64,000 nt of DNA from an uncultured delta proteobacterium. GTDB lineage: Bacteria > Myxococcota > Myxococcia > SLRQ01. The notes under the pieces are model-generated. The model made no database searches. It had not been told where the DNA came from and was given only the letters and a program-made list of their open reading frames with translations. Made by a program: the position numbers and the translations under genes. Below, piece by piece: positions 11,068 through 15,213 of the stretch. The stretch lies in contig CAVSGM010000001.1 in assembly GCA_963727485.1 (NCBI GenBank), positions 256,001 through 320,000 on the forward strand, given 5' to 3'. The stretch's first letter is position 1. Each line of letters begins with the position of its first letter.

Positions 11068-12030
11068 ATGAACCGCTCTGCGCCGCGGGCCGCCGCGCCC
11101 GCGCTCGCCGCCGTCCTCGCCGTGCCCGTCGTGATCCTCGTCGCGTGTCCGTGCCTGGCGCCGCGCCCCGCCCGCGCCGCCCCCGACGCGCCCACCGAGT
11201 CCCGGGCGCTCCTCTACCCCGAGGCCACCGCCGCCGGCCGGGCGCCGCCGGAGCTCCGGGTCCGGGTCGACGGCACCCCGGTGACCGTCTACCTCCCGGA
11301 CCACGCCCTCGACCCGCGCCCGGCGGTGCACCTGCTCACCATGCCCACCGAGCTCGGCCTGCGGGTCGCCGAGCACACCGCCTACCTGTTCACCACCGCC
11401 AAGGCCCGCGCCGGGGACACCGGGACCCTCACCCTGACCCTCGCCGACGGCCGGCCCCTCACCTTCACCGTGCGCCTGGTCCCCGCCACCGCCTCGGCGG
11501 ACGCCAGCGTCGAGGTGCGCCTCCCCGAGGACCGGCACACCCTCCCGGCCCGGTGCCAGGCGGCGGTCCAGGAGGCAAAGGACGCGCTGGCCGAGTGCCG
11601 GGAGTCGGACCCGAAGCGGGCGGTGGCCCTCATCGCCAGCCTGATGCTCGACGCCCCCGAGCACGGCCGGCTCCTCCAGGAGCGACAGGTCCACTGGCGC
11701 GACAAGGAGCACCGGATCTTCATCCAGGTGGTGGACGCGGTGCGCCTCTTCGGGCGGACCTACCTGCGCCTCGAGGTGGAGAACCGCGACGGCTCGGGGA
11801 AGCCCTGGCGGCCAGGGACGGCGACGGTGTCCCTGGTGGGCCCGGGGCCGCGGCTCCAGAGCCTCCCGGTGGTCCCGGTCTACCAGCTCCAGGAGATTGA
11901 CGCCGGGCAGTCGGCGATGGTGGTGCTCTCCGTGAAGACGCCCCAGGTCGCCGCCGGCGCCCACGTGCGCCTCACCCTGGAGGAGAAGGGCGGGAGCCGG
12001 CACCTGGTGATCCAGGGGCTCGCCCTCTAG
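11068..12030 (+). CDS. Exported DUF2381-like protein resembling conjugative TraN (DUF4138)/VirB9
   Basis: Signal peptide; beta-rich N-domain; helical linker with two Cys; C-domain RTYLRLEVENR...EIDAGQSAMVV...LTLEEKGGSRHL, similar to the recalled TraN ending ELxEKNGGRH. Confidence 0.6.
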   Translation: MNRSAPRAAAPALAAVLAVPVVILVACPCLAPRPARAAPDAPTESRALLYPEATAAGRAPPELRVRVDGTPVTVYLPDHALDPRPAVHLLTMPTELGLRVAEHTAYLFTTAKARAGDTGTLTLTLADGRPLTFTVRLVPATASADASVEVRLPEDRHTLPARCQAAVQEAKDALAECRESDPKRAVALIASLMLDAPEHGRLLQERQVHWRDKEHRIFIQVVDAVRLFGRTYLRLEVENRDGSGKPWRPGTATVSLVGPGPRLQSLPVVPVYQLQEIDAGQSAMVVLSVKTPQVAAGAHVRLTLEEKGGSRHLVIQGLAL

Positions 12031-12037
12031 GCCGGGC

Positions 12038-13996
12038 TCACGGCGCCGCCGGCCCGGGGAGGCGCACCGGCACATCGAGGCGGACGGTGACGCCGGTGCC
12101 CGCGGGGAGGGCCAGCACCGGGTGGCCGCCGGCCTCGGTGACCGCGTCGGGGACCAGGAGGCCCGCCCGGCCGTCGGCCCCGAGGGCGGTGCCCTTCAGG
12201 GGGCGGGCGGCGCCGCCGGGGACGACGACGCGGGTGAAGCGGATGGCGAGGCGGTCGCCGGCGGCGCGGGCCTGGCCCCAAAGCCGGGTGCCCCGGGGCA
12301 GGACGACTCGACCGCCGCGGACCACCGAGCGCACCAGACGCACCGAAGTGGGCCGGGCGCCCGTGGAGTCGGTTCCGCCATCGAGGCGGGAGGCGAGCAG
12401 GGTGCCGGCGCGGAGCGTCGCGGGGGCCGGGGCGGAGGCGGGGTGGGGCGCGGCGCCGGGGGCGGGGCCGAGGACCTGGACGGCGGGGGCCGGCGCCGCG
12501 GAAGCGGTGGGGGGCTCGGGGGTCGGCGCCACGCGGGCCCGCTTGGCGCGGGCCCGGGGATGCGCCCGCCGGTGGGTGGCGGCGTGCCGGCGCCGGTGGG
12601 GCGCGGCGGCCGCGGTGGGGCGAGACCGAGGTGGGGTTCGGGCGGCGGGTGTCGCCGGTTGCCTCGCGGGGTGGGGCGCGGTGCTGGGCGCCGCGGGGGC
12701 GGGCGCGGCGACCTTCGGGGTCGGCGTCGAGGTCGCCCTGGTGGGCGCGGGGCCGGTCGTTCCCGGCGTGCGGGAGACGGCCCAGGTGACGCCGGCGGCG
12801 AGGAGGACCGCGGCGCTGAAGACCGCGGGCGTCCGCCACCGGGGCGGGCGGCGGGGGGCCGCGGGCGCCGCCTCGAGGGCCGCGGTCTCCGAGCTCCGGG
12901 GCGAGGCCGGCGCCGATCCCGCTTCGGACGCCGCGCGCTTTCCCTCGGCCCGGGTGTCGCCCGGCTCCGGCGGGGTGGGCACCGAGCGCGGGGGCGGGTC
13001 GCCGGCGCCCGCCGCGTGGGCCCCGCCCGACCCCGGCCGCGGGAGCCTCGCCGTCCCGGGACGGCGGCCGGCGGCCTCCTCGGGGAAGAGTCGGCGCATC
13101 AGGGCCCCGAGGTCGAGGGCCTCCGACGAGTCGGCGTGGGCCAGCACCACGTCCCCGAGGGCGGCGGCCAGGGCCTCGGCGGTGGCGAAGCGCCCGGCGG
13201 GATCCTTGGCCAGGGCCCGGGCCACCAGCGCCTCGAGGTCCGGGGGCACCTCGGCGCGCACCGATTGGAGCGGCGGCGCCTCGAAGCGCTCCACCGCCCG
13301 GAGGATCTCCGCGTCGGACCGCCCGGTGAACAGGGGCTGGCCACTGACGAGCTCCCAGAGCACCACCCCCAGGGCGAAGAGGTCGGTGCGCCCGTCGACG
13401 GCCTCGCCCCGGGCCTGCTCCGGGCTCATGTAGGCGCACTTGCCCTTGATGACCCCGGCGGCGGTGCGGCTGCGGCCGGTGGCGACCTTGGCGATGCCGA
13501 AGTCGGTGAGCTTCACCTCGCCGTCGAAGGACACCAGGACGTTCTGGGGCGACACGTCCCGGTGGACCAGGCCGAGCGGCCGACCGTCGTCGCCCTCGAG
13601 GCCGTGGGCGCAGGCCAGCGCCCGGGCGACCCCCTGGCCCACCAGCGCCGCCTGCACCGGGGTCACCGCCTCGCCGGCGTCGGCGGCGGCGCGCATCACC
13701 CGGCGCAGGTCCTTCCCGCGGATCCACTCCATGACGATGAAGAACGACCCGTCGGCCTCGCCGAAGTCGAAGACCTGGGCGACGTTGGCGTGGGTGAGCT
13801 TCGAGGCCAGGCGCGCCTCGTCGAGGAACATCTCCACCAGCTCCGGGTCGTCGACGAGGTGGGGCAGGATGCGCTTGAGGGCGACCTGCTTCTCGAAGCC
13901 CGCGGCGCCCTCCCGGGTGGCGGCGAAGACCTCCGCCATGCCCCCCGCGGCGAGGCGCCGGCCCAGGCGGTAGGGTCCGAGTCGGGCGGGCTCCAT
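12038..13996 (-). CDS. Membrane Ser/Thr (Hanks) protein kinase with Pro/Ala-rich linker and C-terminal TraM/TrbI/VirB10-like domain
   Basis: AAGGMAEV, VALKRI, HRDVSPQN, DFGIAK, YMSPEQ, DLFALG; TM AVFSAAVLLAAGVTWAV; C-terminal LRAGT...GRVVLPRGTRLWG...RLAIRFTRVVVPGG...GADGRAGL. Confidence 0.88.
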   Translation of the reverse strand: MEPARLGPYRLGRRLAAGGMAEVFAATREGAAGFEKQVALKRILPHLVDDPELVEMFLDEARLASKLTHANVAQVFDFGEADGSFFIVMEWIRGKDLRRVMRAAADAGEAVTPVQAALVGQGVARALACAHGLEGDDGRPLGLVHRDVSPQNVLVSFDGEVKLTDFGIAKVATGRSRTAAGVIKGKCAYMSPEQARGEAVDGRTDLFALGVVLWELVSGQPLFTGRSDAEILRAVERFEAPPLQSVRAEVPPDLEALVARALAKDPAGRFATAEALAAALGDVVLAHADSSEALDLGALMRRLFPEEAAGRRPGTARLPRPGSGGAHAAGAGDPPPRSVPTPPEPGDTRAEGKRAASEAGSAPASPRSSETAALEAAPAAPRRPPRWRTPAVFSAAVLLAAGVTWAVSRTPGTTGPAPTRATSTPTPKVAAPAPAAPSTAPHPARQPATPAARTPPRSRPTAAAAPHRRRHAATHRRAHPRARAKRARVAPTPEPPTASAAPAPAVQVLGPAPGAAPHPASAPAPATLRAGTLLASRLDGGTDSTGARPTSVRLVRSVVRGGRVVLPRGTRLWGQARAAGDRLAIRFTRVVVPGGAARPLKGTALGADGRAGLLVPDAVTEAGGHPVLALPAGTGVTVRLDVPVRLPGPAAP

Positions 13997-14268
13997 CAGG
14001 TCCGATCCCTATCTGATTCCGCCCGCGGTCGCGAGCCCCGCGGGGTCCCGGCCGGGCGGGGGCCTGGACCGGGGCCGACCCCAGCCTACCGCGCCCCCCT
14101 GACATGCCACCGCCTCCCACCCCGGTCCCCCCGGACGGGTCGGGCGCGATGTCTGGGGGTATCCCACATCTTGTACCACTACATGTGGTGCCGAACGCCC
14201 CTGGCGACCCCCAGGGCTCGGGTCCCCCCCGCCCACCGCCGCAAGCTCTCGAAAACCCTTGAAAAAAC

Positions 14269-14811: not shown

Positions 14812-15213
14812 ATGCCGCACATCGCGCACCTGGGGGACGTGGTGGTCGTACGCCCGGAGGGCGACATCAACCACCGGGAGATGGCGGCGGTGAAGAACGC
14901 CATCACCGACCTGATGCGCGAGCGCGAGAGCCGGGTGGTCCTCGACCTCGGCGAGGTCGACCACGTCAACTACATGACCGTGGGGGTCCTGGTGGAGCGC
15001 GCGGGTCGCCTGCGCCGCACCGGGGGCGACCTGCGCCTGGCCGGCCTCTCCGGCTACCTCCAGGACATCTTTCGTTTCAGCGGAGTGCACCACCTCTTCG
15101 CCGCCTACGACACCGTGGTGGAGGCCGTCGCCTCCTTCGCGGGCGAGGCGGCGGGTGTCTCCGCCACCGTTTCTGCCGGCACGAGTGGAAGCTGGGTCCC
15201 GCGGATGCACTGA
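14812..15213 (+). CDS. STAS-domain (anti-sigma antagonist-like) protein
   Basis: VVVVRPEGDI, RVVLDLGEVDHVN, GGDLRLAGLS..LQDIF; alternative start 14791. Confidence 0.85.
   Translation: MPHIAHLGDVVVVRPEGDINHREMAAVKNAITDLMRERESRVVLDLGEVDHVNYMTVGVLVERAGRLRRTGGDLRLAGLSGYLQDIFRFSGVHHLFAAYDTVVEAVASFAGEAAGVSATVSAGTSGSWVPRMH

Follow-up and report, generated by a model that had tools for sequence, protein, structure and literature searches.

Can part of a secretion machine outlive the machine and be kept as a receptor? The question is raised by two convergent genes in the window, a 64,000-nucleotide stretch of contig CAVSGM010000001.1 from an uncultured myxobacterium, one of which (P0001) encodes a Ser/Thr kinase fused to a VirB10-type beta-barrel and the other of which (P0002) encodes an exported VirB9-like protein. 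In T4SSs (type IV secretion systems), VirB10 is the subunit that spans the envelope; at this locus it carries a kinase and has neither the pore nor any machine part but VirB9. On balance, the pair is probably a VirB9-like protein and a pore-less kinase-VirB10 fusion that were likely acquired from a conjugative element, are kept by one myxobacterial family, and likely act as an inner-membrane receptor kinase. The window genome (G000) is 93% complete, and the family comparison covers five genomes (G000-G004). The parts of the fusion are as follows.

12038 to 13996, minus strand: P0001, 652 aa, fusion of Ser/Thr kinase, membrane helix, linker and VirB10 barrel
13166 to 13972, minus strand: Hanks-type kinase domain, residues 9-277, catalytic motifs intact
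12776 to 12832, minus strand: single transmembrane helix predicted from hydropathy, residues 389-407, basic residues before it
12425 to 12775, minus strand: periplasmic linker, Pro/Ala-rich by composition, residues 408-524, including a brief hydrophobic segment that lies about 20 residues ahead of the barrel
12056 to 12424, minus strand: VirB10/TrbI/TraM beta-barrel lacking the helical hairpin of the antenna, residues about 525-647

A preliminary description, made from the sequence of the window, had claimed a kinase with one transmembrane helix, a long Pro/Ala-rich linker and a beta-rich C-terminal domain of VirB10/TraM fold, and this layout is now established. Residues 9-277 match Pkinase (E 4.6e-34), with all catalytic motifs present (VALK with K41, DEARL, HRD at 145-147, DFG at 165-167, SPE and D205), while the sole hydrophobic segment (389-407, mean hydropathy 1.73) follows a basic stretch, and a single-pass topology is predicted; Pro makes up 24% and Ala 28% of the linker (408-520). 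P0001 has the motifs and the predicted topology of a Hanks-type receptor Ser/Thr kinase. Scored alone, its last 140 residues reach 35.6 bits with TrbI (cut-off 35) and 25.4 with Transposon_TraM (cut-off 25.1), and structure prediction combined with a structure search identifies the C-terminal VirB10 beta-barrel fold. The partner divides as follows.

11068 to 12030, plus strand: P0002, 320 aa, divergent DUF2381-family, VirB9/TraK-like exported protein
11068 to 11178, plus strand: type I signal peptide predicted from hydropathy, residues 1-37, with cleavage after A-R-A inferred from sequence
11194 to 11520, plus strand: N-terminal beta domain, residues about 43-151, from the secondary structure of the model
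11548 to 11649, plus strand: two-helix connector, residues about 161-194, with Cys 163 and Cys 177, from the model and the family alignment
11674 to 12021, plus strand: C-terminal beta-sandwich domain, residues about 203-318, from the model

That P0002 would be an exported two-domain beta protein is upheld at the level of prediction by an N-terminal hydrophobic segment (13-31, mean hydropathy 2.71) and by a model in which two beta domains are joined by two helices, and the structure search with this prediction returns the VirB9 two-domain fold. Its assignment as VirB9/TraN-like is supported by a VirB9/TraK-like fold and by kinship to DUF2381; P0002 itself has no significant Pfam or NCBIfam match, none to CagX, TraK or DUF4138, and no direct match to DUF2381 (PF09544). 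The kinship is seen in orthologues from G001, G002 and G004, which exceed the PF09544 cut-off, and in full-length homology to DUF2381 members (hhalign 99.5% to an operon-type member, of the kind described below; E 7.1e-31). The N-terminal half of P0002 weakly matches a DotH/IcmK profile (E 0.029), and relatives of P0002 give sub-threshold matches to DotH/IcmK, DUF4138 and TraK_C (the last at E 5e-6 and 7.5e-6, both below cut-off). Cys 163 and Cys 177 (window 11554-11598) are invariant in all eight family-type partner sequences; a single predicted helix has one of them at each end, and the distance in the model is too great for an intrachain bond; an inter-subunit disulfide is possible.

No secretion machine accompanies the pair. 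Queries for T4SS components, consisting of profiles and single sequences of both myxobacterial and canonical origin, were run against 32,071 six-frame open reading frames (ORFs) of G000, and those for VirB2-6, VirB8-10, VirB4, the coupling protein and the relaxase gave no significant match besides the window pair, the weakest exclusions being VirB2 (E 0.03) and VirB9 (E 0.063); the VirB11 query matched six ATPases elsewhere in the genome. The positive control G028 has PF19044; G000, G001 and G002 lack it, and in G003 its score stays under the cut-off. An operon-type query found no VirB4 in any of the five family genomes. The locus holds no VirB7-like gene, and two integrase-like genes lie on other G000 contigs. 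The orphan status claimed for the pair is confirmed by these searches; the VirB4 ATPase, inner-membrane channel subunits, pilin and coupling protein of a T4SS were not found in the 93%-complete G000.

Its origin is visible in other Myxococcota, where the same gene pair ends an operon of a small regulator and VirB2-, VirB3-, VirB4-, VirB5-, VirB6- and VirB8-like genes (VirB4 labelled above Pfam cut-offs, VirB2, VirB3 and VirB6 from sub-threshold matches, and VirB5 and VirB8 by position and size). A DUF2381-like gene lies upstream of the kinase-VirB10 fusion at 20 of 24 inspected loci, including G176, where the partner was called from a weak TraK_C match only; the four exceptions are a contig end (G117), a partner alone (G144), a fusion alone (G305) and a kinase-free VirB10 (G225). 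In G102 the element is complete, its genes including integrase, ParA/ParB, coupling protein, primase and a Replic_Relax relaxase; G059 has a coupling protein and a weak relaxase match. A database search with the barrel alignment retrieved 135 proteins; among the 120 matches listed, 101 have a kinase and 19 look like N-terminal fragments. As the fusion is present in complete mobile elements and in 101 of the 120 matches listed, it predates the orphan state. The suggested origin in conjugation systems is supported; the idea that domestication produced the fusion is not. The operon-type fusions (G014, G025, G032, G102, G059 and others) resemble the window pair in architecture and DUF2381 partner, whereas they keep the antenna, are co-directional within VirB4 operons, are patchy among genomes and mostly have another kinase subtype; they are its likely source, and the pair was likely taken from a conjugative element. 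The operon-type kinase-VirB10 gene is usually followed by a gene for a very large immunoglobulin (Ig)-like surface protein, one for an outer-membrane beta-barrel and one for a lytic transglycosylase (L018:3703-7679, L019:5574-11810, L100:1240-7385). In three genomes of one genus (G014, G075 and G091; L015, L076 and L078), a virB operon with kinase-VirB10 lies beside the same chromosomal genes, with no relaxase or coupling protein recognised nearby, and may be a fixed, non-conjugative T4SS.

A structural difference lies in the antenna, which is described as the outer-membrane pore; according to the available text of one study, a CagY mutant without it assembles the core complex and does not secrete (PMC11024343). 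Some 45 antenna residues are deleted in all five family barrels and kept in all 11 aligned operon copies. About 45 residues follow the PG-type motif in the family, versus 83-90 in 118 of 118 measurable operon-type database matches, and the P0001 barrel model is all-beta, without a helix. VirB10 binds the N-terminal domain of VirB9 through a segment ahead of the barrel; all five family proteins have a short hydrophobic stretch some 20 residues upstream of the barrel, at the place where operon-type proteins carry P-x-W (judged by eye). A true outer-membrane core ring, spanning the envelope to pass on outer-membrane signals or persisting as a residual channel, would suit the two folds as well as the linker, whose 120-144 residues (131-142 in three operon-type fusions) could span the periplasm; it is nevertheless quite improbable in view of the antenna deletion in all five barrels, the all-beta model, the missing VirB7-like gene and VirB4-type ATPase, and a lipobox that is not conserved (the lipobox-like Cys27 of P0002 is absent in P0005, a 93%-identical relative). 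With the antenna deleted, no VirB7-like gene and Cys27 not conserved, no outer-membrane anchor is seen for the pair, and the preliminary term "outer-membrane core" is not retained.

If the pore and machine are gone, the pair might be the decaying remains of an integrated element, now without function beyond the kinase domain, as the loss of all other T4SS genes and of the antenna would allow. This explanation is highly improbable and already disfavoured: family reading frames are intact across five genera with the identical deletion in all, the barrel (35-44% identity within the family) is far more conserved than the periplasmic linker (7-25%; kinase, 59-63%), and the proportion of nonsynonymous differences (pN, 0.35-0.45) is below that of synonymous differences (pS, 0.52-0.72; both uncorrected) in six of six comparisons. 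Between G000 and G002, the partner is conserved to the same degree as FtsQ. Selection on the proteins of the pair is thus visible at the sequence level. The barrel gene occurs in all five family genomes and the partner in four, in one copy each, while just 9 of 67 genomes of another family have the partner.

Whether the two proteins work together is a separate matter, as both genes could be kept but uncoupled, with the barrel serving an ordinary receptor kinase as an independent sensor or as a domain that self-oligomerises, and the partner occupied with a job of its own. The convergent orientation points that way, as do the gene inserted between the pair in G001, the unpaired cases (G305, G144 and possibly G003), the partners of G004 and P0083, each fused to the end of an unrelated gene upstream, and TraB barrels, which form a ring of their own as described in the accessible part of PMC8770708. 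Uncoupling is all the same unlikely: the two genes remain neighbours in all three testable family genomes despite differing surroundings and at 20 of 24 other loci, which bears out the expected co-occurrence in relatives, and partners (100/100) and kinases (96-99) each form a family-specific group in their trees, separate from the Myxococcus type. The two genes converge in G000, in G001 (where the intervening gene encodes an antiporter) and in G002; they lie on separate short contigs in G004, and in G003 the kinase stops 27 bp short of a contig end and the partner was not found. The upstream gene to which the partner is fused in G004 (L013:6436-9204) and P0083 encodes a DUF2330-like protein whose C-terminus bears a Cys-rich membrane tag; G001 also has this upstream gene, there separate from the partner gene.

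Antenna-less fusions occur in four lineages, namely the window family, G028, G305 and the Myxococcus-type clusters; because the trees are unrooted, the number of independent losses is a matter of inference. In G028, one mobile element (L096:5983-8785, L106:13163-18511) carries an antenna-less DUF2381 / kinase-TrbI pair upstream of a separate canonical VirB1-VirB11 set (VirB7 not called), so the pair need not be the channel there. In G305 (L095:2618-7869), the antenna-less kinase-barrel gene follows an OmpA/Ig-domain protein, and DUF2381 was not found in that genome. A surveillance or decoy module, in which the pore-less barrel would enter and spoil the core complex that a related conjugative element brings in, and would report it through the kinase, would fit the loss of the antenna in four lineages, the G028 pair beside a full canonical T4SS and the failure to find VirB4 in the five family genomes with an operon-type query. 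It is improbable, however, since the pair brings its own VirB9-like partner, which is only about 30% identical to operon-type proteins, and the lack of the element from five genomes is a weak point, since another family has it in only 9 of its 67 genomes.

The Ser/Thr protein kinase (STPK) / PKc-like / DUF2381 (PF09544, TIGR02268) clusters of Myxococcus xanthus likewise place DUF2381 beside a membrane kinase, the tail of which looks like a barrel without the antenna. They differ from the window in their many copies per genome, nearby integrase and Xre genes, co-directional arrangement and second kinase-like gene, and they branch separately from the window family in both the partner and the kinase tree (unrooted). 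The barrel assignment is weaker for this type, two such rows being part of the first profile and an independent profile giving E 1e-5 to 2e-7 or no match. Myxococcus-type kinases have an internal lipobox-like LGC before the tail, and short kinase-free lipoprotein-like ORFs with a weak barrel-profile match adjoin DUF2381 in such genomes (L028:684-1295, L041:971-1573, L052:2175-3551 and similar). The M. xanthus kinase clusters have been described (PMC3986340) and linked to phase variation (PMC3986340 and a preprint that names DUF2381, bioRxiv 10.64898/2026.08.28.747804). The term DUF is absent from the main text of PMC3986340, and the available text of these two sources makes no mention of a T4SS origin. 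Full-text searches (few subscription papers, no supplements) found no description of a kinase-VirB10 fusion, no paper that names TIGR02268, and that preprint alone naming DUF2381.

For the inner-membrane receptor kinase that we favour, the partner would be exported to the periplasm via its predicted type I signal peptide and would bind the barrel and pre-barrel stretch, by analogy with VirB9 on VirB10; the available text of PMC8770708 describes VirB9-like subunits binding the VirB10 linker in the F, Cag and Dot/Icm systems. Binding would gather several kinase chains into a pore-less periplasmic oligomer, whereupon the clustered cytoplasmic kinase domains could phosphorylate each other and cytoplasmic targets. 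Lacking the antenna, a conserved lipobox and VirB7, the assembly would be suspended from the inner membrane, and its input would most likely be the assembly or strain of the periplasmic shell, i.e., the envelope state; when carried by a mobile element, such a fusion would signal that the transfer machine has assembled.

Relative to the VirB9-VirB10(-VirB7) core complex (X. citri 6gyb, pKM101 3jqo, R388 7o3j, F-type 7spb/7okn, H. pylori CagX/CagY), the window pair shares the VirB10 layout of helix, Pro-rich linker and barrel, the two-domain exported VirB9-like partner, and a gene pair that ends virB operons in relatives; it differs in the kinase at its cytoplasmic end, the deleted antenna hairpin, the convergent and chromosomal genes, and VirB7, VirB4, coupling protein and relaxase, none of which was found. 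Functional analogies for the proposed mechanism are PpkA-TagR of the Pseudomonas H1 type VI system and the PknB/PASTA kinases, in which a single-pass Hanks kinase is activated when a partner or ligand dimerises its extracytoplasmic part. Their extracytoplasmic domains are unrelated to the window pair, and PpkA regulates a secretion machine but is not made from its shell.

More broadly, we tentatively propose, as plausible rather than probable, that myxobacteria have repeatedly made the conjugation shell a receptor: the fusion of VirB10 to a kinase would date from mobile elements, the pore hairpin would since have been lost in four or more lineages, and fusion and VirB9-like partner would now form a ring-shaped receptor kinase that does not secrete but senses the envelope state or incoming conjugation machines. 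If true, this would be a signalling class built on a T4SS scaffold, new once binding and activation were shown, and would supply a mechanism for DUF2381 and the M. xanthus kinase clusters; should the pair signal, a secretion scaffold would have been reused as a receptor. DUF2381, which 119 of 401 sampled Myxococcota genomes have and which is multi-copy in Myxococcus-type ones (many copies each), gains a fold and a likely role, and since the kinases neighbouring it in Myxococcus-type genomes change with phase variation, a direct test is possible in a laboratory strain. The window locus adds a single-copy, chromosomal, family-wide and pore-less form, the simplest two-gene version to reconstitute.

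Lastly, the locus itself is as first described: the two ORFs, 11068-12030 (+) and 12038-13996 (-), converge on stop codons TAG (12028-12030, plus strand) and TGA (12038-12040, minus strand), each gene is single-copy in G000, and the gap between them reads GCCGGGC.

12031 to 12037, no strand: 7-bp gap between the convergent stops; no intrinsic terminator was found

The placement of the pair between an ABC (ATP-binding cassette) operon and the dcw cluster also holds in G000, with transporter genes on the left (the last one DUF4340) and mraZ and the dcw cluster on the right (gene names taken from translations); these neighbours are not conserved among relatives. Palindromic CCAC...GTGG boxes at window 14164-14190, upstream of mraZ, are also present before mraZ in G002 and resemble an NrdR box. 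Where the dcw cluster begins, both G000 (window 14812-15210) and G002 have, between mraZ and rsmH, a gene that reads as anti-sigma-antagonist-like (STAS-like) by sequence.
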